DNA of 64,000 bases, taken from the NCBI GenBank assembly GCA_031459855.1, contig JAVKHP010000001.1:1993078-2057077 (forward strand), in the 5' to 3' direction. Under the pieces are notes generated by a model. It worked only from the letters and a program-made list of their open reading frames with translations. It had not been told where the DNA came from and made no database searches. Within the stretch, counting starts at the first letter, position 1, and each line of letters starts with the position of its first letter. The DNA comes from Candidatus Fervidifonticultor primus. GTDB lineage: Bacteria > Sysuimicrobiota > Sysuimicrobiia > Sysuimicrobiales > Humicultoraceae. Position numbers and translations under genes: made by a program. Shown here piece after piece: positions 6,386-47,886 of this stretch.

Positions 6386-6401
6386 AATAGAGGCCGGTAC
6401 C

Positions 6402-9089: not shown

Positions 9090-9981
9090 AGGCGTAGAGG
9101 ACGTCCACGACGAGGTTCACCAGCGTGAAGAGCCCGGCGAACACGAGCACCACGCCCTGGACCACCGCGTAGTCGCGGGCCGTGATGGCGCTGACCAGCA
9201 GCCGCCCCATGCCGGGCCAGGCGAACACGGTCTCGGTGAGGATCGCGCCGCCCAGCAGCGCGCCGAACTGCAGGCCGATGACGGTGATCACCGGGATCAG
9301 GGCGTTCTTGAGGGCGTGGCGGAGGATCACCACGCGGCCGTGCAGTCCCTTGGCGCGCGCCGTGCGGATGTAGTCCTGGGTGAACACCTCCAGCAGGCTG
9401 CTGCGGGTCATGCGGGCGATGATGGCGATGGAGAACGCCGCCAGCGCCACCGTAGGCAGGACCAGGTGCGCGGGCGTCCCGTAGCCGCCGGCCGGCAGCC
9501 AGTTGAGGTAGACGGAGAAGAGTAGCATCAGCATCAGGCCCAGCCAGAAGACCGGGAGCGAGACGCCAAACAGCGCCACGGTCATCACCACGTAGTCGAC
9601 CGCGGAGTACTGACGGGTGGCCGAGAGCACGCCGGCGGCCATGCCCACCAGCGTCGCCACCACGATGCTGGAGACCGCCAGCTGCACCGTGGCGGGCAGC
9701 CGGCTGCCGATCTCGCCGATGACCGGCTCGCGGGTGACGGCCGAGTACCCGAGGTCGCCCCGCAGCAGCCGGGCGAAGAACCGCGCGTACTGGACGTACA
9801 GCGGGCGGTCCAGCCCCAACTCCACCCGCAGCCGCTGCACCTCCTCCTCGGAGGCCTGCAGCCCCAAAATCAACCGCGCCGGGTCGCCGGGGATCAGCCG
9901 GATGAGGGCAAAGACGACCACCGTGACGCCAAGCAGCGTCGGGACGGCGAGCCCAAGACGACGCAGCAGGTAGAGGCCCAT
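9061..9981 (-). CDS. ABC transporter permease, DppB/OppB family
   Basis: MGLYLLRRLGLAVPTLLGVTVVVFALIRLIPGDPA... and C-terminal ...YAYVDPRI. Confidence 0.9.
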   Translation of the reverse strand: MGLYLLRRLGLAVPTLLGVTVVVFALIRLIPGDPARLILGLQASEEEVQRLRVELGLDRPLYVQYARFFARLLRGDLGYSAVTREPVIGEIGSRLPATVQLAVSSIVVATLVGMAAGVLSATRQYSAVDYVVMTVALFGVSLPVFWLGLMLMLLFSVYLNWLPAGGYGTPAHLVLPTVALAAFSIAIIARMTRSSLLEVFTQDYIRTARAKGLHGRVVILRHALKNALIPVITVIGLQFGALLGGAILTETVFAWPGMGRLLVSAITARDYAVVQGVVLVFAGLFTLVNLVVDVLYAYVDPRIHYG

Positions 9982-10076
9982 GGGAGATGTCCGGGCAACG
10001 CACCGGCCCGGGGCGACGCCTGCGGCGCGCCCCGGGCCAGCGTCACGTCGTGGGGACGTCGATCGTCACGTCCACG

Positions 10077-11672: not shown

Positions 11673-11989
11673 CGCGCTCCCTCCTTCCGTCGTGCCGACA
11701 CGTGAAGTCTGCTCGTGCAGGATTCAGCCTGAAGACTACCACAGACGCCCACAGACTACCACGCCGGGCCCGCATTCCCTCTGAGTCCCACGAGGCGCCC
11801 GCGGTGCTCGGCGCAGGCGCTTCCCGGGCGCGGCCTGGTCTTGGACCGTCGCCCCCGGCCCGGAGATCCCGGCGATCGCAGGGCCATCACGTACCCCACC
11901 GCGAACACCGGGGGCATACGGGCGTTCGCTCCGGCCCCCGCGGCCCCGACGCCAGCAGGACCCCCGGGTGGGATGCCGAACGCCTGGTC

Positions 11990-14400: not shown

Positions 14401-14724
14401 ATGGACGCACAGGTGTGGGACGCCTTTCGGGTCGCCGACGCCATGGACGGCCCCGCCCAGCAGTTTCAGCGGCTGCTGGGCCGGCCCGACCTCACGGTGG
14501 GCGTGCTCCGCGTGCTACCCGGCGGCCTCGACCTGCAGGGGACGCACCAGCAGGACGAGGTGTACGCCTGCGTGGGCGGCCGCGGCCTCGTACGGCTTGG
14601 CGACCGCGACGTCCCGGTCGGACCCGGGGCGGTGATCTTCGTGCCCGCGGGCGTCCCGCATCGCTTCCACGGCAACAAGGAGCCGCTGGTGCTGGCGTAC
14701 GTGCTGGTGCCGCCGGCCGGGTGA
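14401..14724 (+). CDS. Cupin-domain protein
   Basis: Internal ATG with GGAGGA upstream; ...GTHQQDEVYACVGGRGLV...GAVIFVPAGVPHRF... cupin two-motif pattern. Confidence 0.6.
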   Translation: MDAQVWDAFRVADAMDGPAQQFQRLLGRPDLTVGVLRVLPGGLDLQGTHQQDEVYACVGGRGLVRLGDRDVPVGPGAVIFVPAGVPHRFHGNKEPLVLAYVLVPPAG

Positions 14725-14744
14725 GGCGGCCCGACCGGACCGGA

Positions 14745-16259
14745 TCAGCCCGAGGCCGATGCCGGGACCGCATGCGGCCGTGCAGCGACCTCGGCGAAGT
14801 GACGGGCCTCGAGGGCGGCCGCCGCGGGTGGAGGGTCGCCAAAGCGCAGGTGAGCGACCAGCCCCGGGTGCACCGCCCGGACGGCCTCGTAGAGCTGGAG
14901 GGCGATGCGCCGGTAGGAGAAGTGCCCGCTCTCCCGTGCCCGCAGCGGCACCACGCTGTAGAGCTCGCGCAGGTTCATGGTGGCCAGGAACCGGCGGTTG
15001 TGGGCGTTGGTGACCAGGTAGGCGGCCTCGTGCGGCAGGTCGGCGGCGAGGCGGTGGTAGGCCTCCGTGGCCTGCTCGACCGCGGCGCGGAATGCGCCCT
15101 CCAGGCCGGCCTCGACGATGGCGCGGGGCACCGCGTAGCCCAGGTCCACCGTGGGGGCCTGGGGGCTCTGGGTCATCATGCGGTGACGCTTGAGGTCGAA
15201 GTAGGCGCCCTGGTCGCAGACGATGTCGAAGGTGTAGGTGACGTGCTCGAGCTCGCGTAGCGGCGCATCGTGGCGCCGGAGCCGCCCCAGCGCCTCACAG
15301 ACGATGGCTGCGCGCCCATGCGGGTCAAGCGCGGCCGCCCGCGCCCAGGCCCGGCGGTACGACGTCCGGCCGTAGCGATACAAGCATGCGGCCACGATGC
15401 GCAGTTCCGCATCCCGGTCGTAGTGCACCAGGCGAACCCCGGGCGACGCCTCGCCGTCCAGGAGGTCGGCCTCCGCCGGCTCGTCCTCGCCCCTGGCCAG
15501 GGCGGTCAGGGCCGCGGCCGTCTCGATCAGGTAGGGGCTGGGCTCGGCGTACTTGACGAGGGTGGGCACCTCGGTGCGGGCCACGGCCTTGACCTCGGCG
15601 CCGATGGCCCGGACCTCTTCGAGGGGGTGCGACAGCATCTTGGTGATGGCATGCTCGAGGGCGCGGGCGTTGGCCGTCATGCCCACGTTGGCGAGCGTGG
15701 CGCAGGGCAGGAGGAAGCGGCAGACGTCGATGTACCTGGAGCGGATCCGCGCGGCATACGCCCGGTCGGCCTCCCCCTCGTGGCGCGGGTACCACGTCTC
15801 GATGACGCGCCGCACGGGCTCGAGGCTGGCCCGGTACGTCTCGAACAGGCGCCGGCAGGTCTGCACGTAGAGCTCGGCGTGCGGGGAGGCGGCGACCGTC
15901 GGCGGGACGTAGAAGGCGTCGAAGATCTGGTAGCGGGTGGACTTCTCGGTGTACGAGCAGAGACGGTTGCTCTCCAGGCACTCGATGGCCAGGCGCGACA
16001 CGTTCTCCAGCGCCAGGTGGAGGACGGCGTGCTCGGCCACCGAGCCGTGCCCGTACCCCAGCACCCACTTCTCGTGGAACTCGCTGGACGACTCCTCCGT
16101 CAGTTCCGCCGCGATCTCCCGAAAGGGCTTGGGGCTACGGGAGGTCTTGGCGAAGGCGACGGCGATGACCTCGGGGGGAAGGAGCCTGGGGCTAAGGAGG
16201 TAGATGTCGCGGCGGCGCAGCGATGGAGTACCGTCGATCGAGGCGAACTGTGGTAGCAT
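14745..16259 (-). CDS. ThyX-like (flavin-dependent thymidylate synthase family) protein with two Thy1-like halves
   Basis: N-terminal half GHGSVAEH...VSRL...ESNRLCSYTEKSTRY mirrors the ThyX signature but with SNR in place of RHR; second half contains ...DLKRHRMMTQSPQ.... 504 aa, about twice ThyX length. Confidence 0.5.
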   Translation of the reverse strand: MLPQFASIDGTPSLRRRDIYLLSPRLLPPEVIAVAFAKTSRSPKPFREIAAELTEESSSEFHEKWVLGYGHGSVAEHAVLHLALENVSRLAIECLESNRLCSYTEKSTRYQIFDAFYVPPTVAASPHAELYVQTCRRLFETYRASLEPVRRVIETWYPRHEGEADRAYAARIRSRYIDVCRFLLPCATLANVGMTANARALEHAITKMLSHPLEEVRAIGAEVKAVARTEVPTLVKYAEPSPYLIETAAALTALARGEDEPAEADLLDGEASPGVRLVHYDRDAELRIVAACLYRYGRTSYRRAWARAAALDPHGRAAIVCEALGRLRRHDAPLRELEHVTYTFDIVCDQGAYFDLKRHRMMTQSPQAPTVDLGYAVPRAIVEAGLEGAFRAAVEQATEAYHRLAADLPHEAAYLVTNAHNRRFLATMNLRELYSVVPLRARESGHFSYRRIALQLYEAVRAVHPGLVAHLRFGDPPPAAAALEARHFAEVAARPHAVPASASG

Positions 16260-16423
16260 GGCCTTCCCCCCGGGGTCGCCGCCTCATATTCCACGTCCGA
16301 TCGGGTTTTCCTTCTAGATCTAGTGCGAAGAGCCAAAATTCCCTCAAGATTTTGTAGGCGGCCCCTGGCCGGGAGTCTTCTGCCCTGGCAGGAGTCCCGA
16401 GGCCAGACGGCCAACACGCAGAC

Positions 16424-17029
16424 GTGAGCCTGCTGGCCCGACTGCGGGAGCAGCTGCGGGAGTACCGTCCGCGTGACCTGCCGCCCCATTCGTGGCGCCG
16501 GGCGGCGGTGCTCGTCCCGGTGTTCGAGCAGGACGGGGTGGCACACCTGCTCCTCACCAAGCGGACGGAGACCGTCGAGCACCACAAGGGGCAGATCTCC
16601 TTCCCCGGGGGCGGCGAGGAGCCGGGAGACGCCTCGCTCCAGGAGACCGCGCTCCGGGAGACGTACGAGGAGCTCGGGTTGGAGCCGTCGGCCGTGGAGG
16701 TGCTCGGGCGCCTGGACGAGGTCGAGACGATCGTGTCGGGGTTCGCGGTCACCCCCTTCGTGGGTGCCGTGCCGCCGCCGGATCGCCTGCGGCCCAATCC
16801 GAACGAGATCGACGAGGTCGTGACCCTGCCCCTGGCGATCTTCCAGGACCCGGGGCGGGTGCGCGCAGAGCGCGTGGTGCGTGGGGGCCGGGTGGTGGAG
16901 CTGCTCTACTACGACTGCGGCCGCTGGACCGTGTGGGGGCTCACGGCGCGGATCATCCGGAACCTGCTGGACGTGGTGGAGGGAAAGGTCCCGGAGGCGC
17001 CCGAGCCGCCCGCGGCCAACGAGCCGTGA
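16424..17029 (+). CDS. NUDIX hydrolase, CoA pyrophosphatase (NudL-like)
   Basis: ...LLLTKRTETVEHHKGQISFPGGG... CoA-pyrophosphatase motif plus Nudix box ...ETALRETYEELGL...; GTG start. Confidence 0.85.
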   Translation: MSLLARLREQLREYRPRDLPPHSWRRAAVLVPVFEQDGVAHLLLTKRTETVEHHKGQISFPGGGEEPGDASLQETALRETYEELGLEPSAVEVLGRLDEVETIVSGFAVTPFVGAVPPPDRLRPNPNEIDEVVTLPLAIFQDPGRVRAERVVRGGRVVELLYYDCGRWTVWGLTARIIRNLLDVVEGKVPEAPEPPAANEP

Positions 17030-17079
17030 GGGCCGCGGCCCAGCCGGGCCAGGATGACACGGGAAGGGACGGGTTCGAC

Positions 17080-17595
17080 GTGGCAGTACGGTTGGTGATC
17101 CTCGACTGCGACCTGACGCTATGGAACCATGCCAACGTCACGGCGCTGCGGCGGCCGTTCGAGCGGGACGGCGAGGACGCGGTGCGCGATCAGGATGGCG
17201 TCCGCGTCGCGCTGTACCCGGGCGTCCGGCGGCTGCTGGACGGCCTGCGGGCGCGGCGGGTGCTGGTGGCAGCCGCGTCCTGGAACCGGCCCGAGCCGGT
17301 CGACGAGATCTTCGCGCTGCTGGGGCTGGAGTCGTACTTCGACCTCAAGAAGGTCGAGCCGCACCCCCACAAGGAGCGGCTCGTCGCCGCCCTCGTCGCC
17401 GACCTGGCCGCCCGCGGGTGCGTCCTGCGGCCGGACGAGATCCTCTACGTCGACGACCGGCGCATCCACCTCGACGCGATCCACGCCACGGTGGGGCCGG
17501 TGCGGTTCCTCCAGATGGGCCACGACATCCAGCGCCCCGACGAGGTGCTCGCGCACCTCGACGCCCTGGGCGTGGGGGCCGCACCGCAGGCCTGA
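17080..17595 (+). CDS. HAD-superfamily phosphatase, MDP-1 family
   Basis: N-terminal VRLVILDCDLTLW motif; GTG start inside track ORF 16492..17595, GGAAGGG upstream. Confidence 0.7.
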   Translation: MAVRLVILDCDLTLWNHANVTALRRPFERDGEDAVRDQDGVRVALYPGVRRLLDGLRARRVLVAAASWNRPEPVDEIFALLGLESYFDLKKVEPHPHKERLVAALVADLAARGCVLRPDEILYVDDRRIHLDAIHATVGPVRFLQMGHDIQRPDEVLAHLDALGVGAAPQA

Positions 17596-35675: not shown

Positions 35676-37139
35676 ATGAGCGCACGCACCCGTTCCGACG
35701 CCCTCGAGCACGTCCTCGCCGAACTCCGGGGGCTGCTGGGCGACCGCCTCTCGACCGCCGCCGCCGTGCGCGCCCACCACAGCCGGGGCGAGACGTACCT
35801 GCCGCCGCAGCCGCCGGACGCGGTGGCGTTCCCGCAGTCCCTCGACGAGGTGCGCGCCATCGTCGAGGCCTGCGCGCGCTGGCACCTGCCCGTGATCCCC
35901 TACGGGGCGGGCACGTCGCTGGAAGGGCACGTGGCCGCCCCGCACGGCGGGCTCTGCATCGACCTCTCACAGATGACCCGCATCCTGCGCGTCAGCCCTG
36001 AGGACATGGACGCCACCGTCGAGGCGGGGGTCACGCACCGGCAGCTGAACCGCCACCTGCGCCGCTTCGGGCTCTTCTTCTCCGTCGACCCGGGCGCCGA
36101 CGCCACGCTGGGCGGCATGGCCGCCACGCGGGCCTCGGGCACTACCGCGGTGCGCTACGGCACCATGCGCGAGAACGTCCTGGGCCTCACCGTGGTGCTC
36201 GCCGACGGCCGCGTGATCCGCACCGGCACCCGCGCGCGCAAGTCGGCCGCGGGCTACGACCTGACGCGGCTGTTCGTGGGCTCGGAGGGTACGCTCGGGG
36301 TGATCACCGAGGTCACGGTGCGGCTACACGGGGTGCCCGCGGCGGTGGCAGCCGCCACCTGCGCGTTCGCGACGATCGCGGGGGCCGTGGACACCGTCAT
36401 CACCACGGTCCAGCTGGGCATCCCGGTGGCCCGCATCGAGCTCCTCGACGAGGTGCAGATGGACGCCTGCAACCGCTACGCGGGCCTCGACTGCCCGGTG
36501 GCGCCGACGCTCTTCCTGGAGTTCCACGGGCCCAGCGAGCGCAGCGTCGCCGAGCAGGCGGAGATGGTGCGGGAGGTGGCCGCCCAGCACGGCGGACACG
36601 AGTTCCGCTGGGCCACCGACGCCGGGGCGCGCGAGCGGTTGTGGAAGGCGCGGCACGACGCCTACTGGGCGGCGCTCGCCCTGCGGCCCGGCGCCAGCGG
36701 GCTGACCACCGACGTGTGCGTGCCCATCTCACGCCTGACCGAATGCATCGTGGAGACCAAACGCGACCTGGCGACGTCGCCGGTGCCCGTGGCGCTGGTG
36801 GGCCACGTCGGCGACGGCAACTTCCACCTGGTGTTCGTGGTCAATCCCGACGACCCCGCCGAGATGGCCGCGGTCAAGCAGCTCAACGAGCGCATGGTCC
36901 TGCGGGCGCTGGCCCTGGGCGGCACCTGCACCGGCGAGCACGGCGTGGGCCTCGGCAAGCTGCCCTACATGGCCCGGGAACACGGCGAGGCGCTGGAGGT
37001 CATGCGGGCCCTCAAGCGGGCCCTCGATCCGCACGACATCATGAACCCCGGCAAGCTGGTGGCCGGTGGGGGCACGACCGATGTGGCGCACGACCTGGCC
37101 CCGCCGGTTGACACCGGGTGCGGCCCGCGCGTAGACTGA
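35676..37139 (+). CDS. FAD-linked oxidase (GlcD / D-lactate dehydrogenase family)
   Basis: FAD-binding PCMH pattern ...PVIPYGAGTSLEGHV... and C-terminal ...GTCTGEHGVGLGKLPYM...; internal ATG of track ORF 35187..37139. Confidence 0.85.
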   Translation: MSARTRSDALEHVLAELRGLLGDRLSTAAAVRAHHSRGETYLPPQPPDAVAFPQSLDEVRAIVEACARWHLPVIPYGAGTSLEGHVAAPHGGLCIDLSQMTRILRVSPEDMDATVEAGVTHRQLNRHLRRFGLFFSVDPGADATLGGMAATRASGTTAVRYGTMRENVLGLTVVLADGRVIRTGTRARKSAAGYDLTRLFVGSEGTLGVITEVTVRLHGVPAAVAAATCAFATIAGAVDTVITTVQLGIPVARIELLDEVQMDACNRYAGLDCPVAPTLFLEFHGPSERSVAEQAEMVREVAAQHGGHEFRWATDAGARERLWKARHDAYWAALALRPGASGLTTDVCVPISRLTECIVETKRDLATSPVPVALVGHVGDGNFHLVFVVNPDDPAEMAAVKQLNERMVLRALALGGTCTGEHGVGLGKLPYMAREHGEALEVMRALKRALDPHDIMNPGKLVAGGGTTDVAHDLAPPVDTGCGPRVD

Positions 37140-37201
37140 GCGGTGACAGCCGCATAGTGGTGGCGATGGAGCTCGCCAAGCGCCCGGGCGTGCGGGCTGA
37201 T

Positions 37202-37240
37202 AGCTCCTACTGACCGGCAGGTCGGTAGGAGCTTTTTGAT
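37202..37240 (+). terminator. Rho-independent terminator downstream of the FAD-oxidase gene
   Basis: AGCTCCTAC-T-GACC [GGCA] GGTC-G-GTAGGAGCT giving a 14-bp stem (one U-G wobble) followed by TTTTT. Confidence 0.7.
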
Positions 37241-37253
37241 TCTGGGGCGGACC

Positions 37254-37757
37254 ATGGCGCAGACCTCGACGATCGCGATCGAGTTGCTCGAGGACGACGC
37301 CCGCGCCGTCGTGCAGGCGGCAGGCGGCGATGGCCCCGACCTGCCCCACCGGCTGGCCGCGCTGGTGGCCGAGGGCCTGGACCAGTACCTCCGCGACGAG
37401 GCTGCCTGGGAGGTCGCGGCGGGCACGGGTGCTGGAGTCGGAGCCCAGACGCCCTCAGTGGTCCTCCAGCACCGGGAGGCCGAGGCGCTGGTGGTCGTCA
37501 TGCGGGCGCGCACCATCACCAGCGAACGGCACGTCGAGGCCCTGCAAGCACGTGTCCGCGAGCTGGCCCGCGAGCACGCAGCGTACAGGGAGCACATGGC
37601 GCGCCTGCGCACGGCAGCCGGGCACCTGCGGCAACGGCGCGCTCAGCTGCGTGCCGTGCTACATGGCGGGGCGTCGGCCGACGCGGCGACACGCCCGCTC
37701 GCGGTGCGGATCGCTGCCCGCCTGCGCGGGATGCTGCGGCGTGGAACGCCGCCATGA
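37254..37757 (+). CDS. Hypothetical protein, RHH-like N-terminus plus coiled-coil (167 aa)
   Basis: N-terminal strand-helix pattern (...STIAIELLEDDARAVV...) then Arg/Ala/Glu-rich heptad-like region; stop overlaps next gene start (ATGA). Confidence 0.45.
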   Translation: MAQTSTIAIELLEDDARAVVQAAGGDGPDLPHRLAALVAEGLDQYLRDEAAWEVAAGTGAGVGAQTPSVVLQHREAEALVVVMRARTITSERHVEALQARVRELAREHAAYREHMARLRTAAGHLRQRRAQLRAVLHGGASADAATRPLAVRIAARLRGMLRRGTPP

Positions 37758-38260
37758 CGACGCTGATCTTCCCCAAGGTGGCGCAGGTGACCGTGGCACT
37801 GCCCGATGGGCTGCGGCAGCGGTTGGAGACGTTCGCCGCTGCGCGCGGGTGGGGTGTGGACGAGGCCGCGAGGCTGCTGCTGGCCTACGCGGTCGTCACC
37901 CGCGCGGGCCGTGCCCTGACGCCCGAGGAAACGGTCAACAGCTGGAGCGCGGCCCGTGCCGAGCTGGCCCTGTTGCGGCACCGGGCCTACCTGGCCGACG
38001 ACGCCGCGCGGACCCTGCGCATGAACGTCACAGGACTGGAGGCGTCCAACACCCAGTACCGGCGCTCGCTGCCTGCCGTCGAAGCGGAGGTTGCGCGGCT
38101 GGAGGCGGAGATCCGGGACCTGGAAGCCCAGTGCATCCGGCGTGGCCTGCCGGTCCCGGCGCCGGAGCCGGTGGAGCCGCCACCCGCTGCCGCACCGCTG
38201 GACTTCTTCCGGCGCACCCGCGCCGCCGACGGTCGAGGTGATCCGGGTGGCGGCCGGTGA
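37754..38260 (+). CDS. Hypothetical protein, RHH-like N-terminus plus coiled-coil (168 aa)
   Basis: ...VTVALPDGLRQRLETFAAARGWGVDEAARLLLAYAV... resembles ribbon-helix-helix DNA-binding fold; ...AVEAEVARLEAEIRDLEAQ... coiled-coil; same architecture as the preceding gene. Confidence 0.5.
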   Translation: MTTLIFPKVAQVTVALPDGLRQRLETFAAARGWGVDEAARLLLAYAVVTRAGRALTPEETVNSWSAARAELALLRHRAYLADDAARTLRMNVTGLEASNTQYRRSLPAVEAEVARLEAEIRDLEAQCIRRGLPVPAPEPVEPPPAAAPLDFFRRTRAADGRGDPGGGR

Positions 38261-39023
38261 GTCCGCCCTCGCACGGGACTTCGTGTACCACGCGCTGGTG
38301 GCGGGGCTCCATCCCGATCACTGCGTCGTCTGCCGCCTCAGTCTGGACAGTGTCGAGCGCCACTTTCAGGCGTTCTTCTACGAGCAGGTGAACGACCCAT
38401 GGGTGCGGCACGCGCTGGTCGCCGCGCGCGGGTTCTGCCCGACGCACGCCTGGCGGCGTCCCGGGCTGCACGACGCCTCCGGGATCTCCATTGTCTACCA
38501 TCACCTGCTCTCGGAGCTCGTCACGGTGTTTCGGGCTGCCGCCGACAGTGCCGCGCACGCGCGCGCAGGCAGCGCGCCGGTGCGGCGGCGGTGGCGCCTG
38601 CGCCCTGGCCGCCGGGTCGCCGGCGCCCTCGCCGCATGGATGACCCCCCGGGGACCGTGCCCGATGTGCGTGACCCAGTGGGAGGCCGAGGACCGGTATG
38701 CCGCGGTGCTGGTCCGCGCAGCGGCTGCCGACGAGTTCCGGGATCGCTACCGGGACAGCTTCGGCGTGTGCATGCCGCACCTGGTCTTGGCCCTCGGACA
38801 GGGTGCGGCTCCAGCGGCCTGCGACTGGTTGGTGGCCACGGAAGGCGCAAAGCTCGCCCGCCTGCTCTGGGAGCTGTCGGAGTACATTCGCAAGCTGGAC
38901 TACCGGTTCCGGCACGAGACCGTGCTGCGAGAAGCCACGGCGTGGCAGCGCGCCATCGAGAAGCTGGTCGGGGCGCCGGGCATGGTGTGGCGGCGGTCGC
39001 CGACGTCGGCGGATACCCGCTGA
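38238..39023 (+). CDS. Cys/His-rich hypothetical protein with two CxxC...CxxH motif pairs (putative metal-binding)
   Basis: ...HPDHCVVC...(31 aa)...FCPTHAW... and ...CPMC...(32 aa)...CMPHL...; start taken at a GTG overlapping the previous gene's end (38247 also possible); track ORF 38091..39023. Confidence 0.5.
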   Translation: MIRVAAGESALARDFVYHALVAGLHPDHCVVCRLSLDSVERHFQAFFYEQVNDPWVRHALVAARGFCPTHAWRRPGLHDASGISIVYHHLLSELVTVFRAAADSAAHARAGSAPVRRRWRLRPGRRVAGALAAWMTPRGPCPMCVTQWEAEDRYAAVLVRAAAADEFRDRYRDSFGVCMPHLVLALGQGAAPAACDWLVATEGAKLARLLWELSEYIRKLDYRFRHETVLREATAWQRAIEKLVGAPGMVWRRSPTSADTR

Positions 39024-39190: not shown

Positions 39191-40372
39191 TCACCCGCGT
39201 CTGCGCACCACCACGAAGAGGGGCACAGCCGCCAGCTGCGCCGCCAGCGAGAACACCACGACGGCCGCGACCGCACGATCGTAGAGCGCGCCCATCAACG
39301 CGCTCCCGAGGAACCACGCGATCCCGTACGCGGCGTTGAGCGCGCCGTAGGCGGCACCCCGCCGGTCGGCTGGCGCCATCTCCGCCACCGCGGCCCGCAT
39401 GATCGACTCCTGCGCGCCCAGCCCCACGCCCCACAGCAGCACGCCCGCAAGCGCCAGGGTCGGGCTCCCCAGGAAGGCCAGGGGCACAAACCCCGCCCCA
39501 AGCAGCGTCGCGGGCACCAGCACGGTGACTCCTGCCCGGTCGAACCACCGGCCGAGCCCGAGGGCCGCGACGGCGTCGGCGCCCATGGCGAGGGCGTAGA
39601 AGAGGGGTATCCAGGTCGCTGGGACCACGGCGCGCGCCTCGAAGTGGAAGGCGATGAGGGCGAAGTCCGCATAGCCCGCGCCCACCAGCGCCACGGCCGC
39701 CACGTACAGCCAGAACCGGCGTCCCAGGCCGGCTGGCGCGAGCGGCGGCGTCGCCACGTCCAGGTCGCGCGGACGCGGGTACAGGCGGCGGGCCACCACG
39801 AGCACGCCCAGGGCTAGCGCCGCCGGGACGATCAGGAGGACGAACCCGTCCCGGTACGTGCCCCGGGTGCCCACGGCCGCCGCCACGACGAGCGGGCCCA
39901 GCACGGCCCCGACCTGGTCCAGCGCCTCGTGGAGGCCGAATCCGTAGCCGCGCCCGACCTGCTGGGTGGCATGTGACAGCATGGCGTCGCGGGCCGGCGT
40001 CCGGATCGCCTTGCCGACGCGCTCGGCGACCACCAGCGCGGCGGCCGTGGTCCAGTGCCCTGCCAGCGCCAGCGCCGGGACCGCCGCGAGGTTCACCACG
40101 TAGCCGGTGATCGTGATCGCCCAGTAGCGACGGGTGCGGTCGGCCAGGCGGCCGGAGACCAGGCGCAGCGCGTAGCCGACCAACTCGCCCAGGCCCGCGA
40201 CGACGCCCACCGCAGTGGCGCTGGCTCCCAGCACCGCCAGATAGGGGCCGGTCACGCTGCGCGAGCCCTCGTAGGTGGCGTCGGCGAGCAGGCTCACCAC
40301 GCCCAGCAGGACCACGAACCGGAGGGCTGTCCGGCGGCTGTCCTCGGCGGTGGGTGGCGCGGCGACCATCAC
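39191..40372 (-). CDS. MFS transporter
   Basis: 393 aa, about 12 predicted hydrophobic segments, ...GRLADRTRRY... MFS motif-A-like loop. Confidence 0.85.
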   Translation of the reverse strand: MMVAAPPTAEDSRRTALRFVVLLGVVSLLADATYEGSRSVTGPYLAVLGASATAVGVVAGLGELVGYALRLVSGRLADRTRRYWAITITGYVVNLAAVPALALAGHWTTAAALVVAERVGKAIRTPARDAMLSHATQQVGRGYGFGLHEALDQVGAVLGPLVVAAAVGTRGTYRDGFVLLIVPAALALGVLVVARRLYPRPRDLDVATPPLAPAGLGRRFWLYVAAVALVGAGYADFALIAFHFEARAVVPATWIPLFYALAMGADAVAALGLGRWFDRAGVTVLVPATLLGAGFVPLAFLGSPTLALAGVLLWGVGLGAQESIMRAAVAEMAPADRRGAAYGALNAAYGIAWFLGSALMGALYDRAVAAVVVFSLAAQLAAVPLFVVVRRRG

Positions 40373-40435: not shown

Positions 40436-41638
40436 TCAGTCCGCGCCCGTCGTCGCCAGGGCCGTGCTCGACTCCGCCTTGCCCGTCGCCTCGGCGAGGT
40501 GGCGGACCGGGAGGAAGAACCGGTTGGCGATCCAGGTGGGTACCACGGCGCTGGCGATCACCGTCGCCACCAGGAAGGAGTACTGGGCCGGAGTGATGAT
40601 GCCGTGCGACAGGCCGTACAGCGCCGAGATGGTGCCGAACGTGAGGCCGGTGGACATGAGCAGGGTAGTGTACATGCCCTCGGCGTGGGGGTAGCGGTAG
40701 AGGCGGGTCAGGGGGAAGATGCCCACGAACTTACTGACGGCCTTGGCCAGGAAGAGCACCGCGAAGATCCCCGGCGCACCGGCCACCACCGGGACGTTCA
40801 CGAGCGCGCCCGCCCGGAGGAAGTAGAACGGGGTCAGCAGCCCGAAGGTCAGGGTGCGCAGCCGCCGCACCAGCGCATGCTCCCGGCCGACAGTCCCCGC
40901 CAGGACCATGCCGAGGAGGTAGGCCGGGAGGACGGCTTCCGAGCCCGACCACACCGCCAGCCCGCCCAGCACGAACAGCGAGAAGAGCAGGAACCTGGCC
41001 TCGAGTTCCGAGGTACGCCCGCCGTACCGCGCGAAGAACGGACCGGTGGCCCTGAAGAGCACGACCAGCGCGGCCAGTAGCGCGCCAGTGAAGACGAGCG
41101 TGCGCGGCCCAAACGGCGCGAAGATGATGCCCAACGCTACGACCGTGCCGAGGTCGTTGATGAAGCACGCGGCCAGGATGACCTTGCCAAACGGCGACCG
41201 GTTGAGCCCCAGCTCCACCATCACCGCGTAGACGACCGCCACGGACGTCGTCGAGAGGGCCACCCCGGCCAGGAGGCTGGCCTGGAGGTCCCATCCCAAG
41301 AGGGTCCGTGCGGCCCACGCGGCTCCCAGGAACGGAGCCAGGAACCCGACCAGCCCCACGGCCGTCGCTTCCCGCCAGCTGCGGCGAAATGCGTCGGGGT
41401 CGAGTTCCACCCCGGCCAGGAACGTGAGCACGATCGACCCCAGTCCGGCGAGGAAGGCGATCCAGTCGCGGCGCACGCCCAGCGCGTCCACCCCGAGCAG
41501 GGTGCTGAAGACCACCTGCGCGACGGTGCCGACGACGATCTCCGCAAGCGCCACCGAGACCTTGAGCCAGGTGGACAGCAGCGTGGCGATGAGCGCGAGG
41601 CCCAGCCAGACGGCCGCACTGAACCACACGTGGTCCAT
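40436..41638 (-). CDS. Cation:proton antiporter (CPA2 / Na+-H+ exchanger family)
   Basis: ...LGLALIATLLSTWLKVSVALAEIVVG... and overall 400-aa hydrophobic pattern of KefB/NapA-type exchangers; ATG at 41638 inside track ORF 40436..41707. Confidence 0.85.
   Translation of the reverse strand: MDHVWFSAAVWLGLALIATLLSTWLKVSVALAEIVVGTVAQVVFSTLLGVDALGVRRDWIAFLAGLGSIVLTFLAGVELDPDAFRRSWREATAVGLVGFLAPFLGAAWAARTLLGWDLQASLLAGVALSTTSVAVVYAVMVELGLNRSPFGKVILAACFINDLGTVVALGIIFAPFGPRTLVFTGALLAALVVLFRATGPFFARYGGRTSELEARFLLFSLFVLGGLAVWSGSEAVLPAYLLGMVLAGTVGREHALVRRLRTLTFGLLTPFYFLRAGALVNVPVVAGAPGIFAVLFLAKAVSKFVGIFPLTRLYRYPHAEGMYTTLLMSTGLTFGTISALYGLSHGIITPAQYSFLVATVIASAVVPTWIANRFFLPVRHLAEATGKAESSTALATTGAD
41351..41391. 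repeat. 41-bp repeat copy 1, inside the antiporter coding sequence
   Basis: About 90% identical (37/41) to 47281..47321; here it encodes ...DAFRRSWREATAVG... of the antiporter. Confidence 0.5.
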
Positions 41639-42077
41639 GGGTACGCTCCTGTGGGGTAGCGGCACGCGACGGGCGGCCCCTACCCGCGGAATGTGGGTAG
41701 GAGCCATCAGCCCGAAGAGGGCGGTTCAGGCGGGCCCCATCGCCTGGGCTGGATTATAGGTGCTCCCGGGAGAGTGCGTCCAGTCCTCCTGGCCGCAGAG
41801 GCCATCCTCGTCGCAGGGGTCACCGGCATCCGGCCGTACCAGGCCCCGCGGCGACCGTAGCGGCGCATCACCCGCGCCACACCAGGTTGTTACCCAGGGC
41901 TGCAGAGCCGCTGGCAGTAGACTCTGCGCACCTCTCGCGTCCGTATTCGGGATGCTGCGGCGCGCGCATGACGCGGAAAGCGCTCTGGGGGAGAGGCGGT
42001 GTGCATCTTCTGGCCCGGGGGAGATGGCCCTGACCTTACGCCATCAAGTTAGATGGCGGATGGCGCGATTCGCGCGG

Positions 42078-42107
42078 TAGCCAGGGCTGTCCGTTGCCAC
42101 GTATAAT
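42078..42107 (+). promoter_or_regulatory. Candidate promoter for the sugar ABC operon
   Basis: TATAAT at about 42102-42107 with a weak -35-like TAGCCA 18 bp upstream; about 75 bp before the binding-protein start. Confidence 0.25.
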
Positions 42108-42182
42108 TCACTATAGGAACATGGAGTCCGCATTGTGGACAGATGCAGAGGTTGCCGAGCCCGATACCGGGAGGTGAGCAGG

Positions 42183-43490
42183 ATGCGTAGGCAGGGACTG
42201 AGTGATTTCGCCCGGATCCTAACGGTCCTCGTAGTCGGCATCGTAGTTGGCTCCTCCCCCGCCTGGTCCGCAGAAGTCGTCACGTTGCGATTCTCCAACT
42301 GGCACCTGGTGGAGACCGTCTGGGGGCGCTCTCTGCGCGAGGCGATTGCGATCTTCGAGAGTCAGAACCCTGGCATCCGGATCGTTCCCGAGCCGATTTC
42401 CTACGCGGAGAAAGAACCGCGTTACCAGGCCGAGTGCGCCGCCCGACGTATGCCCGACGTGGTGAAGTTGCACAACTTCTCGCTGACCATGTTCTTCGAA
42501 CTGGGCTGCGCCGCCGACCTCACGCCCTTCGTGCAGCGCGAGGGGCCGGACTTCCTCAGGACCTGGTACGAAACGCCGATCAAGACCCTGACCTACAAGG
42601 GCAGACTCCTGGCGATGCCAGGGGACTTCATGTCGATGGTCCTGATCTACAACCGGGAACTGTTCCGGGCCGCGGGGCTGGATCCCAACAGGCCTCCGCG
42701 GAACTGGACTGAGTTCCTCGACTACGCGAAGCGGCTTACCCGCGACACCGACGGTGACGGCCGGACCGACCAGTGGGGCTTCAGCATGCCGGCGTCCAAG
42801 AACCCCGGTTTGCCGCTACGCATTGCACCAATCGTTTGGAGCTTTGGCGCCGACTTCCTGACGCCTGACGGCCGGCGCTCGGCCATGGACACACGCGAGT
42901 TTCGAGAAGCTTTCTCCTACATTGTCGACTTGGCGACGGCACACCGTGTGGTCCCGCCAGGGGTCACCACCTTTGGCCCCGGCGACGTGCGCACGCAGAT
43001 GGCGCATCGGCGGGTGGCGATGAAGATCGGGTCGGGCTGGTCGTACCCCATCATCAACGACATCAACCCGGCCCTGAAGGCCTACGAGACGCTGGAGGCT
43101 GCGCCCGTACCCGTCGGGCGCAAGCAGGTCACCATGGCGTGGCTTTCGGGGTGGATCATGAGTCCGCACACCCGGTACCCCGAGGCCGCGTGGAAGTTCA
43201 TCAAGTTCCTCACCAGCAAGGAGACCGAGAAGAAGTTTTTCTTCGACAACCGGGTGATTTCGTCGCGCAAGGACGTCAACACGTTGCCCATGGTCCAAAC
43301 CGACAAGTTCTCGAAGGTGATTGTGTCACAGCTCCAGTACGCGAGACTCGAGCCGCTCATCCCGGAGTGGCCCGAGATCTTCGACACCTTCGCCACCGCG
43401 CTGCAGGAGGCGATCACCGGGGCGAAAGCTCCTGATCGGGCCCTTGCCGAGGCCCACGCGAGGGTCAATACGATCCTGGGGGTGCGGTGA
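42183..43490 (+). CDS. Sugar ABC transporter substrate-binding protein (family 1)
   Basis: Signal peptide, 436 aa, family-1 carbohydrate-binding pattern; GGGAGGTGA upstream of ATG; GC3 visibly lower than neighbouring genes. Confidence 0.9.
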   Translation: MRRQGLSDFARILTVLVVGIVVGSSPAWSAEVVTLRFSNWHLVETVWGRSLREAIAIFESQNPGIRIVPEPISYAEKEPRYQAECAARRMPDVVKLHNFSLTMFFELGCAADLTPFVQREGPDFLRTWYETPIKTLTYKGRLLAMPGDFMSMVLIYNRELFRAAGLDPNRPPRNWTEFLDYAKRLTRDTDGDGRTDQWGFSMPASKNPGLPLRIAPIVWSFGADFLTPDGRRSAMDTREFREAFSYIVDLATAHRVVPPGVTTFGPGDVRTQMAHRRVAMKIGSGWSYPIINDINPALKAYETLEAAPVPVGRKQVTMAWLSGWIMSPHTRYPEAAWKFIKFLTSKETEKKFFFDNRVISSRKDVNTLPMVQTDKFSKVIVSQLQYARLEPLIPEWPEIFDTFATALQEAITGAKAPDRALAEAHARVNTILGVR

Positions 43491-44413
43491 ACATCGTGAG
43501 AGGCCGGCCCGCGCCGGCCTCTCACGGCTTCAGAGCTCGCGGGCGCGCCGCGTGCCTGCCGCGGCTGCGCGACGCGCACCTCGGGTACGTCTTCATCGCC
43601 CCGACGCTCCTGCTACTGGGTGTGGTCCTGGCGTACCCCGCCTACGAGAGCGTGCGCCTGAGCCTCAGCCCGCGTGGAGGCGGGGGAGTCACCCTCGTCC
43701 AGTACGTGGGGCTGGTGCAGTCCGACCTCTTCCGGCAGGTGGTCTGGCAAACGGCGGTCTTCGTGACGGCCAGCGTGACGGCGCACGTTGTGCTGGGGCT
43801 TGCCGTGGCCCTGGTGCTCAACCGGCCGCTGTGGGGACGGACGGGCTTCAGGATCCTGGCCTTGTTACCGTGGGTGGTCCCTGATGTCGTAGCCGGGATC
43901 ATCTGGAAGTGGATTCTAAACCCCCTGTACGGGGTGCTCAACGACGCCCTGGCCCGGTTGGGACTGATTGCGCACCCGGTGGAGTGGCTGACCAATCCGT
44001 CGCTGGTCTTGTTCAGCGTGATCCTGGCCAACGTCTGGCGAGGCTTCCCCTTCGTCATGATCATTTTCCTGGCGGGCCTGCAGAGCATCCCGACCGAACT
44101 GTACGAAGCCGCGGCCATCGACGGGGCGGGGACCCTCCAGCGCTTTCGGCACGTAACCTTGCCCGGACTGCGCCGGGTCTTCATCGTGGCCCTGGCCCTC
44201 GACACCATCTGGGAGACGCGCCGGTTCGGTCTCGTCCAGGCAATGACCGGTGGCGGCCCGGGCACCCTCAGTGAGGTCCTCTCGACCCAGGTGTTCAAGC
44301 AGTACTTCCAGTTCTTCAAGTTCGAGTTCGCGTCGGCGATGGCCATCGCGATGACGGGACTGCTGCTGTTCGTGTCAATTCCGTACGTGCGGATGATCGT
44401 TCGAGAGGAGTAG
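43487..44413 (+). CDS. Sugar ABC transporter permease (MalF/UgpA-like)
   Basis: ...EAAAIDGAGTLQRFRHVTLPGL... EAA-loop region; start overlaps binding-protein stop. Confidence 0.9.
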   Translation: MNIVRGRPAPASHGFRARGRAACLPRLRDAHLGYVFIAPTLLLLGVVLAYPAYESVRLSLSPRGGGGVTLVQYVGLVQSDLFRQVVWQTAVFVTASVTAHVVLGLAVALVLNRPLWGRTGFRILALLPWVVPDVVAGIIWKWILNPLYGVLNDALARLGLIAHPVEWLTNPSLVLFSVILANVWRGFPFVMIIFLAGLQSIPTELYEAAAIDGAGTLQRFRHVTLPGLRRVFIVALALDTIWETRRFGLVQAMTGGGPGTLSEVLSTQVFKQYFQFFKFEFASAMAIAMTGLLLFVSIPYVRMIVREE

Positions 44414-44420
44414 CCTGCCC

Positions 44421-45269
44421 GTGGACCTGCCAGCCATCTACAGCCGCTCGCGTCTCGTCTTGGCCTTGGTGTACGTCTTCGCGGGACTCGTGGGCATCTT
44501 AGTCTTCTTCCCTTTCGTGTGGATGGTGCTGACCTCGCTCAAGACGGAGACCGAGGCCTTGCGGATTCCGGTGGTGTGGCTGCCGGACCGCCCCACCCTG
44601 GCTGCCTACGTCACCATGTGGTTGCGAAAGAACTACGCGACGTACTTCTTCAACAGCGCAGTAGTGTCGTTGACCACAGCGGTGATCTCGACACTGTTGG
44701 GCGCCATGGCCGGCTACGGGTTCTCGCGCTTCGCGCTGCGCGGGCGCGGGGTCCTCATGGGGCTGGTGCTCATCAGCCAGATGCTCCCCGGGGTCCTGGT
44801 GGTGGGGCCCTACTTCAAGATCCTCTCGGCCGTTGGTCTCTACGACACCCGCACCGGCCTCATCATCGCATTCCTGACCATCTGCCTGCCCTTTGCCACC
44901 TGGATGCTCAAGGGCTTCATCGACGGTGTGCCGCGGGAACTGGACGAGGCGGCGATGGTCGACGGCTGCAGTCGGTGGCGTATCTTCGTGGGAATCGTCC
45001 TCCCGCTGATCCGTCCGGGCATGGTGGCCACCATGCTCTTTGCGTTTCTGCTGGCATGGGGTGACCTGTTGTGGGTGTCGACTCTCACGCACAGCGAGGG
45101 CATGGTGACCGTCACGCTGGCCATTGCCCGGACGGTCCTCGAGTTCTACGTAAACTGGCCCGAACTGATGGCGGGTGCCCTCATGGGTGGGTTCCCCGGA
45201 ATCGTGTTGTACTTGTTAATGCAGCGGTGGCTGGTCGCCGGACTGACGGCGGGCGCCATCAAACAGTAG
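44421..45269 (+). CDS. Sugar ABC transporter permease (MalG/UgpE-like)
   Basis: ...DEAAMVDGCSRWRIFVGIVLPL... EAA-loop; 282 aa. Confidence 0.9.
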   Translation: MDLPAIYSRSRLVLALVYVFAGLVGILVFFPFVWMVLTSLKTETEALRIPVVWLPDRPTLAAYVTMWLRKNYATYFFNSAVVSLTTAVISTLLGAMAGYGFSRFALRGRGVLMGLVLISQMLPGVLVVGPYFKILSAVGLYDTRTGLIIAFLTICLPFATWMLKGFIDGVPRELDEAAMVDGCSRWRIFVGIVLPLIRPGMVATMLFAFLLAWGDLLWVSTLTHSEGMVTVTLAIARTVLEFYVNWPELMAGALMGGFPGIVLYLLMQRWLVAGLTAGAIKQ

Positions 45270-45279
45270 GAGGCGGTCG

Positions 45280-46350
45280 ATGCGCGGCGTTATGAAGGTG
45301 GGACGCGGCCCCGGCCTCGTAGAACTCCACGAGGTCCCCGACCCGCAGCCGGGGCCGGGCGAAGTGCTGATCGCGGTGGCGGCGGCGGCCATTTGCGGGA
45401 GCGACCTGCACATCTTCCACGATCGTCATCCGTACTGGCCGCCGGTCATCCTCGGCCACGAGTTCGCGGGAACTGTCGCGGCAGTGGGGGAAGGCGTCAG
45501 TGGTTATGCCATCGGGGATCGGGTCGTTTCCGAGACCAGCACAGGGAGCTGCGGCGTGTGTTTCCTGTGCCGCAGCGGCAACAGGCAGATTTGCGAGCAC
45601 AAGCGCGCGCTGGGGATCGGGACGAATGGGGCGTTTGCGCACTACGTGGTTGCGCCTGCCTCGTTGCTCCATCGAGTCCCTGACGGGGTGCCGCTGGAAG
45701 AAGCCGCCCTTACCGAGCCGACGGCCATTGCCGTCCACGCTATCGTTGAGCGCATGAAGGTGGCGCCGGGCGAAACCGTCGTCATCAGCGGCCCCGGGCC
45801 CATTGGCCTGCTGTGCCTGCAGGTGGCCCGGGCGGCAGGCGCCGGTCTGATCGTCGTCAGCGGGACACCCACCAGCGCGCGCCTGCGGTTGCAAGTGGCC
45901 CGGACGGTCGGTGCAGACGTGATCGTCAACATTGGGGAGGAAGACTTGGTCCACCGGGTCCTAGCCCTGACCGACGGTCGCGGGGCCGACGTGGCGGTGG
46001 AAACCTCCGGGGCACCGCAGGCCGTGGAGGCCCTGCCACGCCTGACCAGGCGGCTGGGGCGCATCGGCCTGCTGGGCGTGACCGGACACCCGACGGTACC
46101 GTTCCCTGCCGATGTCGCGCTCTTCAAGGGCCTGGAGGTGCAGTGCTCGTTCAGCAGCAAGCACACCAGCTGGGTGACGGCACTCCGTCTGCTGGCATCC
46201 GGTCAGGTGCGGGTGCGACCGCTTCTGACGACGGCGGTCCCACTGGAACGATGGCAAGAGGCCTTCGAGGCGCAAGAGCAGGGCAGGGCGATCAAGACGT
46301 TGCTGATGCCCTCCCGGTGGCCGCAGAACCTGGCGGAGGGACGAGGATGA
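45280..46350 (+). CDS. Zinc-dependent alcohol/polyol dehydrogenase (MDR family, sorbitol-dehydrogenase-like)
   Basis: ...ICGSDLHIF...GHEFAGTV... catalytic-zinc motif, ...CGVCFLCRSGNRQIC... structural-zinc motif, ...ISGPGPIGL... Rossmann motif. Confidence 0.9.
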   Translation: MRGVMKVGRGPGLVELHEVPDPQPGPGEVLIAVAAAAICGSDLHIFHDRHPYWPPVILGHEFAGTVAAVGEGVSGYAIGDRVVSETSTGSCGVCFLCRSGNRQICEHKRALGIGTNGAFAHYVVAPASLLHRVPDGVPLEEAALTEPTAIAVHAIVERMKVAPGETVVISGPGPIGLLCLQVARAAGAGLIVVSGTPTSARLRLQVARTVGADVIVNIGEEDLVHRVLALTDGRGADVAVETSGAPQAVEALPRLTRRLGRIGLLGVTGHPTVPFPADVALFKGLEVQCSFSSKHTSWVTALRLLASGQVRVRPLLTTAVPLERWQEAFEAQEQGRAIKTLLMPSRWPQNLAEGRG

Positions 46351-47255
46351 GCAGGAGCAGCCGCCGGGACGTGCAGTCTGTCGACCGCGCCATGGTACTC
46401 CTGGCCGCGCTGGGCGAGGCTGGATGTCCACTGGGCGTCCGCGAGCTCAGCGCCCGGGTCATGCTTCCTCGGCCTACCGTCTACCGCCTCCTGCAAACGC
46501 TGGAACACCACGGTGCCGTCACTGCCGCCGACGGACGTTTCATGATCGGGCCTCGCATCCTGTGGCTGGCGGCCCAACGTCTCGAACACATCGAACTGCG
46601 CACCGTCGGACGGCCGTTTCTCCTGGACCTGCGGGACCGGACCGGCGAGACGGTTCACCTGGCCGTCCTGGAGCAGGGTCAGGTCGTCTACGTGGACAAG
46701 GTCGAGCCACCGGGCCCGATGCGCATGGCCTCGGCGGTCGGAAAGATCATGCCGGCACATTGTACGGCGCTGGGCAAGGCCATGCTGGCCCATCTGCCTC
46801 GGGAGCAGGTCCGCGAGGTCCTCGCCCGCCATGGGATGCCGCAGCGCACGCGGCAGACGATCACCAATGCCGACGTGCTGTTGGCGGAACTGGACGCTGT
46901 CCGCGCACGCGGGTATGCCGTTGACAACGTGGAGAACGAAGAGGGTATCCGCTGCGTGGGGGCTGCCATCTTCGACCACCGAGGCGAGGTGGTGGGCGCT
47001 GTCAGCGTGTCTGGAGCCGTCCGCGCCCTGACGCTGGAGCGGATTCGCCGTGACCTCGGCCCATGTGTCCGGGACACGGCAGAGTGGATATCGCGGGCCA
47101 TGGGCTGGCAGACGCCTCGACGATCGGCGACCGCCGAGGGGCGACCGGGGGATCGCCGGACGCAGACCCGCCTGCCGGGACGCATGATCCCGCGGCGTGG
47201 CCAGGCGGCCGTGGTCTCGGGTCGCACGCGTGGGCCGGCGCGCGCCGGAGGCTGA
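46347..47255 (+). CDS. IclR-family transcriptional regulator
   Basis: N-terminal wHTH ...SVDRAMVLLAAL...VRELSARVMLPRPTVYRLLQTL... and IclR effector domain; ATG overlaps ADH stop (ATGA). Confidence 0.85.
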   Translation: MSRSSRRDVQSVDRAMVLLAALGEAGCPLGVRELSARVMLPRPTVYRLLQTLEHHGAVTAADGRFMIGPRILWLAAQRLEHIELRTVGRPFLLDLRDRTGETVHLAVLEQGQVVYVDKVEPPGPMRMASAVGKIMPAHCTALGKAMLAHLPREQVREVLARHGMPQRTRQTITNADVLLAELDAVRARGYAVDNVENEEGIRCVGAAIFDHRGEVVGAVSVSGAVRALTLERIRRDLGPCVRDTAEWISRAMGWQTPRRSATAEGRPGDRRTQTRLPGRMIPRRGQAAVVSGRTRGPARAGG

Positions 47256-47781: not shown

Positions 47782-47886
47782 CTCTTATCAAGAGTGGGTG
47801 AGGGACGGGCCCGATGACCCCCGGCAACCTGCCGCCGCCGCGGTAAGGTGCCAAGCCCCGCGGAACCCAGTTCCGGCGGATAAGAG
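47782..47886 (+). promoter_or_regulatory. SAM-I (S-box) riboswitch aptamer
   Basis: CTCTTATCAAGAG..GGGTGAGGGAC.GGCCCGATGA..CCCGGCAACC...GGTGCCAA..CCCGCGGAA...GGATAAGAG: P1 pairing and conserved S-box core elements; candidate promoter TTGACG-17-TAGTTT at about 47730-47758. Confidence 0.8.

Follow-up and report, generated by a model that had tools for sequence, protein, structure and literature searches.

What might be encoded by three small co-directional genes, two of which specify proteins with N-termini resembling ribbon-helix-helix (RHH) domains and the third a Cys/His-rich protein? The question is raised by ORF1-ORF2-ORF3, a cassette of open reading frames (ORFs) in a 64,000-nucleotide stretch (hereafter the window) of the genome of Candidatus Fervidifonticultor primus (contig JAVKHP010000001.1, positions 1,993,078 to 2,057,077). 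The original prediction was an undescribed regulatory or metal-sensing module. A fluoride riboswitch lies directly upstream, so the module belongs to the known fluoride regulon, and the cassette is probably a fluoride-induced operon whose cargo consists of two RHH/coiled-coil proteins and a member of the DUF6062 family. Fluoride riboswitches constitute a large "super-regulon", which is known mainly for its exporters (Fluc/CrcB, CLC-F), antiporters, and fluoride-sensitive enzymes.

The fluoride riboswitch and the conserved operon

Comparison of upstream DNA across loci showed that some 100 nucleotides of leader 5' of ORF1 are strongly conserved, and the leader was identified through Rfam as a fluoride riboswitch aptamer (37153-37216; coordinates of all features are collected in Table 1). 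It scores 37.9 bits against an Rfam gathering score of 34 (E 4e-9), and 57.8 bits under a custom covariance model built from the 31 riboswitch copies of related loci. In these copies 95.8% of the cells of P1, P2, and the pseudoknot are paired, with compensatory changes in 11 of the 14 pairs; slid controls were 39-60% paired, and none of 500 shuffles was as good. The 5' arm of an intrinsic terminator is the 3' pseudoknot strand of the aptamer (AGCUCCUAC), and this overlap gives the expression platform the architecture of a crcB-motif ON switch. The terminator hairpin is the minimum-free-energy fold of the leader (-51 kcal/mol, z -3.6), and an equally overlapping terminator is present in 11 related leaders. 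In crcB-motif RNAs, ligand binding is expected to block the terminator, turning the genes on (PMC2864571). The promoter-like site preceding the leader matches the consensus at 10 of 12 positions (0.1 such sites expected in shuffles), and related loci have a TTGAC(A/G) -35 element and a TA...T -10 element at equal distance 5' of the leader.

The association of the riboswitch with these genes recurs. A scan for DUF6062, restricted to one genome per species, yielded 34 loci from Armatimonadota, Chloroflexota, Thermotogota, Planctomycetota, Bacteroidota, Methylomirabilota, Hydrogenedentota, and other groups, as well as from Rubrobacter and a Pyrodictiaceae archaeon. In 22 of these, Rfam and the custom model place the riboswitch 5' of the DUF6062 operon and in the same orientation, and it precedes the ORF1/ORF2 pair in all 17 pairs examined. 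Riboswitch control of the trio is well supported: the aptamer is recognised and covaries, a terminator overlaps it, and the arrangement recurs. Binding of fluoride by the aptamer, with induction of ORF1-ORF2-ORF3, is predicted from sequence. Both the riboswitch, which any annotation based on Rfam would detect, and the operon type, in which a fluoride ON switch controls stress genes, were already known.

The three ORFs (37254-39023) are coding-like, and the G+C content of their third codon positions (0.85, 0.86, and 0.87, respectively) is the value expected for genes of the host genome; the window as a whole has a G+C content of about 72%. ORF1 (P0087, locus tag QN157_09250) was called by NCBI from a TTG start at 37236, and ORF2 (P0018, QN157_09255) starts within the ATGA that also holds the stop codon of ORF1. 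The best start candidate for ORF3 is the GTG at 38247, which is preceded by GAGGTG at six bases, overlaps ORF2 by 14 nucleotides, and agrees with the 258-residue database protein P0001; GTG codons at 38238 and 38283 are possible alternatives. The original prediction of a tight operon with overlapping stop and start codons therefore stands in its orientation and at the first junction, and needs correction at the second, where the overlap is not of the four-nucleotide kind. The three genes are translationally coupled.

The cassette had also been expected to be conserved as a unit, and it is: the order ORF1-ORF2-DUF6062 with overlapping genes is kept in at least 14 independent loci, recurring in genomes of Armatimonadota and Chloroflexota far above chance.

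We propose that a constitutive sigma-70-type promoter would start a leader of about 110 nucleotides that carries the aptamer. In the absence of fluoride, the 3' strand of the aptamer would pair downstream to form the terminator, and transcription would end about 20 nucleotides before ORF1; with fluoride bound, the AGCUCCUAC strand would be held in the pseudoknot, no terminator would form, and RNA polymerase would read through into ORF1-ORF2-ORF3 as a coupled unit. The notion of a free-standing metal-sensing module is not borne out, in that nothing points to metal sensing by the proteins and the sensor is the fluoride riboswitch. The wider notion of an undescribed regulatory module survives insofar as the unit is conserved and its proteins are uncharacterised, and fails insofar as it is part of a known regulon and not an independent sensing system.

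The RHH-like/coiled-coil pair

Neither ORF1 nor ORF2 has a Pfam or NCBIfam match above threshold, and a BLASTP comparison of one with the other is uninformative (E 8.6). Their profiles can be aligned by hhalign over 136 columns (probability 76%, E 2e-5), the ORF1 profile matches an ORF2 orthologue, and MAFFT superimposes the two families, which share an invariant R-x-R where the long helix begins. These results support the original view that ORF1 and ORF2 are distant paralogues with a common architecture. ORF1 comprises an acidic RHH-like N-terminal domain, a helix of about 57 residues containing RREAxA...MRARTI, and a basic C-terminal tail; ORF2 comprises a canonical RHH-like N-terminal domain and a long helix containing AARAELAxLRHRAYLADEAxRxLRMNxTGLEAS. 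Clear orthologues of each are found directly 5' of DUF6062 in other genomes. A single gene 3' of DUF6062 in a locus of the Chloroflexota (L018) matches both profiles, and may resemble the unduplicated ancestor.

In the lineage of Candidatus Tepidifontimicrobium, ORF1 and ORF2 are naturally fused in frame as proteins of about 290-310 residues (P0058, P0059, and P0060; about 9127-9975 in locus L013). The fusion P0060 was modelled with AlphaFold2 (mean predicted local distance difference test score 88, predicted template modelling score 0.74) from a balanced subset of sequences in which each family was aligned to its own half, MAFFT otherwise placing both on one half. Each half of the model has an eight-residue strand, two helices, and a helix of about 57 residues; the strand of one strand-helix-helix unit is paired with that of the second, as in RHH proteins, and the best structural matches of the predicted N-terminal module are DNA-binding RHH proteins. 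The predicted structure agrees with the RHH-like N-terminus and coiled coil that had been read from the sequence. Because of the natural fusions and this model, we infer that ORF1 and ORF2 very probably form a heterodimer.

In profile searches, ORF2 matches the RHH domain of RelB in the Protein Data Bank (E 1.4e-3), and its best match among curated RHH families, FitA-like RHH, falls short of membership (14.2 bits versus a cutoff of 27, E 0.044); the ORF1 profile gives coiled-coil matches only and none to RHH proteins. Such matches, like the arrangement of small overlapping genes with the RHH genes first, could be read as signs of a toxin-antitoxin-like module that arrests growth when switched on by fluoride, with the RHH proteins as antitoxins and DUF6062 as the toxin. 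We consider this extremely unlikely: DUF6062 mostly occurs without an RHH partner, sharing an operon with the fluoride channel CrcB; it is large, spread vertically (about 4,900 clusters), found in tandem-domain forms and fusions, and without likeness to a known toxin fold; and there are two RHH genes, which fuse with each other.

DUF6062 and its genomic partners

ORF3 is a member of the Pfam family DUF6062 (PF19538), with 50.3 bits versus a cutoff of 27 over model positions 18-238 of 243; its closest homologues are annotated DUF6062, and NCBIfam has no family match for it. Since DUF6062 has no assigned function, and with ORF1 and ORF2 outside Pfam and NCBIfam, it holds true, as first noted, that none of the three proteins can be placed in a characterised family. 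Word-indexed searches gave few homologues (17 for ORF3 and 11 for ORF1); an exhaustive profile search of representatives revealed a large DUF6062 family of 4,938 cluster representatives (50% identity, E<=1e-3), many of them tandem two-domain forms of 450-520 residues. The predicted fold of ORF3 is all-alpha with 12 helices, and no solved structural relative of it was found.

The evenly spaced CxxC...CxxH sets first noticed in ORF3 (C29-x2-C32...C67-x2-H70 and C141-x2-C144...C178-x2-H181, numbered from GTG 38238) proved to be a family trait: across 155 diverse DUF6062 members, each of the eight ligands shows conservation of 98% or more. The two Cys3His sites are assumed from their sequence to bind structural zinc. 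Also highly conserved in the 155 members is a set of mainly charged residues, YExxND, R57, ExxRKxDYRxxxE, W236, and R238.

A resemblance of ORF3 to zinc-associated anti-sigma (ZAS) factors had been suggested by an HxxxCxxC element, which it contains as HPDHCVVC; ORF3 would then act like a ZAS factor in a protein-based metal- or redox-sensing module, and the invariance of the eight ligands is compatible with such a role. This first reading is largely refuted, and we regard it as highly improbable. Among the 155 sequences the position of the motif's first His is not conserved, Ala being the most frequent residue; no sigma factor gene is present in the neighbourhood within the window or in related loci; and an RNA sensor of fluoride is already in place at the locus. 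ORF3 is like ZAS factors in being a Cys/His-rich helical protein and in having the motif string in this one sequence, where it is best explained as a coincidence; it differs in fold and in the order of its ligands, which is CxxC and then CxxH about 34 residues on, twice over. The ZAS identity of ORF3 was rejected on these grounds.

Some DUF6062 proteins of 370-385 residues have a C-terminal helix homologous to the long helix of ORF2 (hhalign 89%, E 2e-6, 69 columns). In other phyla, DUF6062 has other partners, among them small TPR proteins and a fused STAS-like domain. The latter is found in P0213 (374 residues), where a SpoIIAA-like domain (STAS, PF11964) is joined to DUF6062, a hint that some family members take part in partner switching or regulation. 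In several phyla, loci with the fluoride riboswitch have dynamin-like GTPases adjoining DUF6062 (Table 1), and in L014 an 871-residue protein (14650-17265) is a dynamin-like GTPase (P-loop GQFKRGKSS) fused to a C-terminal DUF6062 domain.

The Na+/H+ antiporter, Usp, mutS-like, and CrcB genes that recur as neighbours in related loci correspond to classes whose association with fluoride riboswitches has been published (PMC11139923, PMC5533749, PMC2864571). Their arrangements are varied: riboswitch-CrcB-DUF190-DUF6062 (L022); riboswitch-DUF6062-antiporter-Usp followed by CrcB and DUF190 (L031); riboswitch-antiporter-Usp-DUF6062 (L038, Rubrobacter taiwanensis); and riboswitch-dynamin-like GTPase-DUF6062 (L039). 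In L041 and L042, the ORF1/ORF2 pair occurs without DUF6062 beside riboswitch-controlled pairs of ATPases with MutS domain V. These paired proteins of about 510-560 residues (L041 6517-9954 and L042 7618-10715) have MutS domain V only and their own fluoride riboswitch, and probably correspond to the "mutS" genes reported at the discovery of the crcB motif. Sub-threshold NCBIfam matches to KamC, a MutS-like reactivase ATPase, hint that they are chaperone-like and not mismatch repair proteins.

Two loci deserve separate mention. In L040, from a metagenome-assembled genome of the Planctomycetota, three fluoride riboswitches are found within 2.5 kb (6345-6416 on the minus strand, 6528-6600 and 8693-8764 on the plus strand), flanking an operon of a TPR protein and DUF6062 and neighbouring genes. 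In L014, a 676-residue ORF (9944-11974) appeared to be a fusion of DUF6062 with an antiporter and was rejected as such: a riboswitch (10644-10723) lies inside the "linker", which means that there are two genes separated by an intergenic region that merely lacks an in-frame stop, an example of high-GC DNA imitating a gene fusion.

Within the window, a second fluoride riboswitch (56.8 bits) lies between a promoter-like site (TGGACG-18-TATAAT) and ATG 41638, the true start of a Na+/H+ antiporter gene convergent with the trio. The antiporter is orthologous to antiporters beside DUF6062 in many phyla (phmmer 1e-55 to 1e-190), and the MFS transporter encoded by the second gene of its operon, which could be a fluoride-related transporter, is of a subfamily that adjoins DUF6062 in 13 loci. 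The platform hairpin of the second riboswitch (CCTACCC/GGGTAGG) has no T-run, so that control may be translational or Rho-dependent. As the trio and the convergent operon of transporters are both riboswitch-led, they make up one fluoride-responsive locus; no CrcB homologue was found within the 64-kb window.

Farther afield, the region 42000-47000, which contains sugar ABC transporter genes (SBP_bac_1, BPD_transp_1), has a G+C content of 0.64-0.68 versus about 0.72-0.75 elsewhere and may have been horizontally acquired. A SAM-I riboswitch (RF00162, 85.7 bits, 47782-47886, plus strand) lies directly 5' of an ORF starting near 47884.

Table 1. Features of the three-gene locus and its surroundings in the window, and dynamin-like GTPase genes of related loci (the latter numbered within each locus).
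Feature	Position	Strand	Remarks
Sigma-70-like promoter	37108..37137	+	TTGACA-18 nt-TAGACT; overlaps last codons of upstream FAD-oxidase gene
Fluoride riboswitch aptamer (crcB motif, RF01734)	37153..37216	+	Rfam 37.9 bits
Intrinsic terminator	37202..37238	+	14-bp stem 37202-37233, 4-nt loop, T5 run
ORF1	37254..37757	+	167 aa; alternative TTG start 37236
ORF2	37754..38260	+	168 aa; distant paralogue of ORF1
ORF3	38247..39023	+	DUF6062 protein; 258 aa counted from GTG 38247
MFS transporter	39191..40372	-	Second gene of riboswitch-controlled convergent operon
CPA2-type Na+/H+ (cation:proton) antiporter	40436..41638	-	Pfam Na_H_Exchanger; NCBIfam CPA2
Second fluoride riboswitch	41753-41691	-	Rfam RF01734, 56.8 bits; promoter-like site 41782-41753
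nuoL/M/N	farther upstream of trio		
Sugar-phosphate isomerase-like gene, lgt, FAD-linked oxidase	upstream of trio	+	
MFS transporter, Na+/H+ exchanger (the two genes listed above)	downstream of trio	-	Convergent with trio
Sugar ABC transporter block	beyond convergent transporters		Lower GC
Dynamin-like GTPase near DUF6062	L039 8123-9901		
Dynamin-like GTPase near DUF6062	L037 9685-11823		
Dynamin-like GTPase near DUF6062	L040 1778-3820		
Dynamin-like GTPase near DUF6062	L014 12373-14139		

Possible roles of the proteins and comparison with known systems

What the induced proteins would do is a separate question from their regulation, and for it we offer a tentative model that we hold to be possible, short of an even chance when its parts are taken jointly. 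The N-terminal strands of ORF1 and ORF2 would pair as a ribbon-helix-helix, their helices of about 57 residues would form a coiled coil, and the coiled coil would dock the DUF6062 protein with its two putative zinc-binding Cys3His sites. The model is favoured by the order and overlaps of the genes, which are fixed in at least 14 loci, by the natural RHH fusions, and by the ORF2-like helix present on some DUF6062 proteins. In parallel with the Na+/H+ antiporter, MFS, Usp, and MutS-like genes under riboswitch control, the complex would form a second regulatory tier of the fluoride response or bind nucleic acids. Its activity could be that of a secondary transcription regulator, of a protective factor that is associated with nucleic acids and connected with the MutS-like ATPases, or of a scaffold.

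Several observations weigh against this interpretation, in its regulatory or its protein part. The aptamer at 37153 is only 4 bits above the Rfam threshold, though the custom model and its conservation back it, and the whole fluoride-operon account is computational, regulation and protein roles alike being predicted. Every neighbouring operon has its own riboswitch, so that a protein regulator is not needed for their induction. No conserved operator or palindrome besides the riboswitch and terminator was found, by eye and by repeat search, near the promoters of the trio and of the convergent operon. It is possible that an Fe-S cluster or a metal other than zinc occupies the ORF3 sites. DUF6062 often stands next to CrcB, dynamin-like GTPases, or TPR proteins with no pair present, and the pair lacks DUF6062 in L041 and L042; their co-occurrence could therefore reflect shared regulation only. 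Finally, no Pfam RHH family is over threshold for ORF1 or ORF2, and DNA binding is doubtful because their RHH-like domains are acidic, with a net charge of -7 to -9 for ORF1 in its clade and a median of -2 for ORF2; the basic parts of the two proteins are the long helices and some C-terminal tails only. A simple repressor, in particular, is disfavoured by the acidic domains, the failure to find an operator, the separate riboswitches of neighbouring operons, and the other partners of DUF6062.

The separate occurrences are what would be expected if the three proteins were independent members of the fluoride regulon that share a riboswitch and form no complex, the pair serving the MutS-like ATPases or another process, and DUF6062 having a biochemistry of its own as an enzyme or as a buffer of metal or fluoride. 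The pair is accompanied by the MutS domain V pairs where DUF6062 is missing, DUF6062 in most phyla adjoins CrcB/DUF190 or dynamin-like GTPases with no pair, and its invariant charged residues might make up an active site or a site for a ligand. Against this stand the constant order and overlapping frames of the trio in at least 14 loci and the fusion of an ORF2-like helix to DUF6062 in some lineages, and we consider independence somewhat unlikely.

The acidity of the RHH-like domains would also suit a membrane-associated scaffold that does not bind nucleic acids, in which DUF6062 would be anchored, through the coiled coil and the basic amphipathic C-terminal tails, close to fluoride-induced transporters or to dynamin-like GTPases that remodel membranes. 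The C-terminal tails are basic and aromatic (e.g., RLRGMLRRG and WFKRLLGRWRRGR), DUF6062 adjoins dynamin-like GTPases in L039, L037, and L040 and is both adjacent and fused to them in L014, and linkage to membrane transporters is constant. However, transmembrane segments are absent from all three proteins, the tails show little conservation within the family, and the structural matches of the N-terminal module to DNA-binding proteins point elsewhere; this explanation seems to us distinctly improbable.

With the heterodimer and DUF6062 docking retained as the working model, what is new here is the cargo: the presence of DUF6062 and the RHH pair in the fluoride regulon was not found described in the literature searched, which contains no mention of DUF6062 (the gene lists of Baker et al. 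2012, outside the search, may include these as hypothetical proteins). The locus ties a very large uncharacterised family (some 4,900 clusters, 50% identity) and a putatively heterodimeric RHH/coiled-coil pair to the fluoride regulon, and gives both a concrete physiological context, namely growth with versus without NaF. Regulatory mechanisms and stress-management functions of the fluoride response are still considered open problems in reviews (PMC11139923). It is conceivable, although on balance rather unlikely, that DUF6062 and the ORF1/ORF2 heterodimer constitute an unrecognised protein layer of the fluoride response, a DNA- or RNA-binding complex that recruits a zinc protein of novel fold, or else that DUF6062 represents a new fluoride-mitigating activity in thousands of bacterial and archaeal lineages. 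A riboswitch-driven RHH/coiled-coil complex, if real, would be the first fluoride-driven regulatory cascade, and a pair that binds DNA would be a protein regulator acting downstream of an anion-sensing RNA.

Three kinds of known systems bear comparison. The N-terminus of ORF2 resembles RHH antitoxins and regulators (RelB, FitA, CopG, NikR) in its sequence pattern and in its weak matches to RelB and FitA-like proteins; in contrast to these, ORF1 and ORF2 score under the family thresholds, have no toxin partner, and are riboswitch-controlled. Tandem or single-chain RHH proteins (TraY of the F plasmid, engineered single-chain Arc, AvtR) have both units in one polypeptide, whereas ORF1 and ORF2 are normally separate, diverged chains and their RHH domain is therefore read as an obligate heterodimer; each unit, moreover, bears a coiled-coil helix of about 57 residues with a conserved R-x-R, one unit is strongly acidic, and neither reaches an RHH family of Pfam. 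The RF01734 resistance operons, such as the ppaC-uspA-eno-gpmA-crcB operon of Enterobacter cloacae FRM, share the aptamer with a terminator overlapping its 3' strand and a similar set of Na+/H+ antiporter, Usp, and mutS-like neighbours, CrcB and DUF190 being found in the loci related to this one. The trio differs from them in its cargo, which is neither an exporter nor a fluoride-sensitive enzyme but two RHH/coiled-coil proteins and DUF6062.

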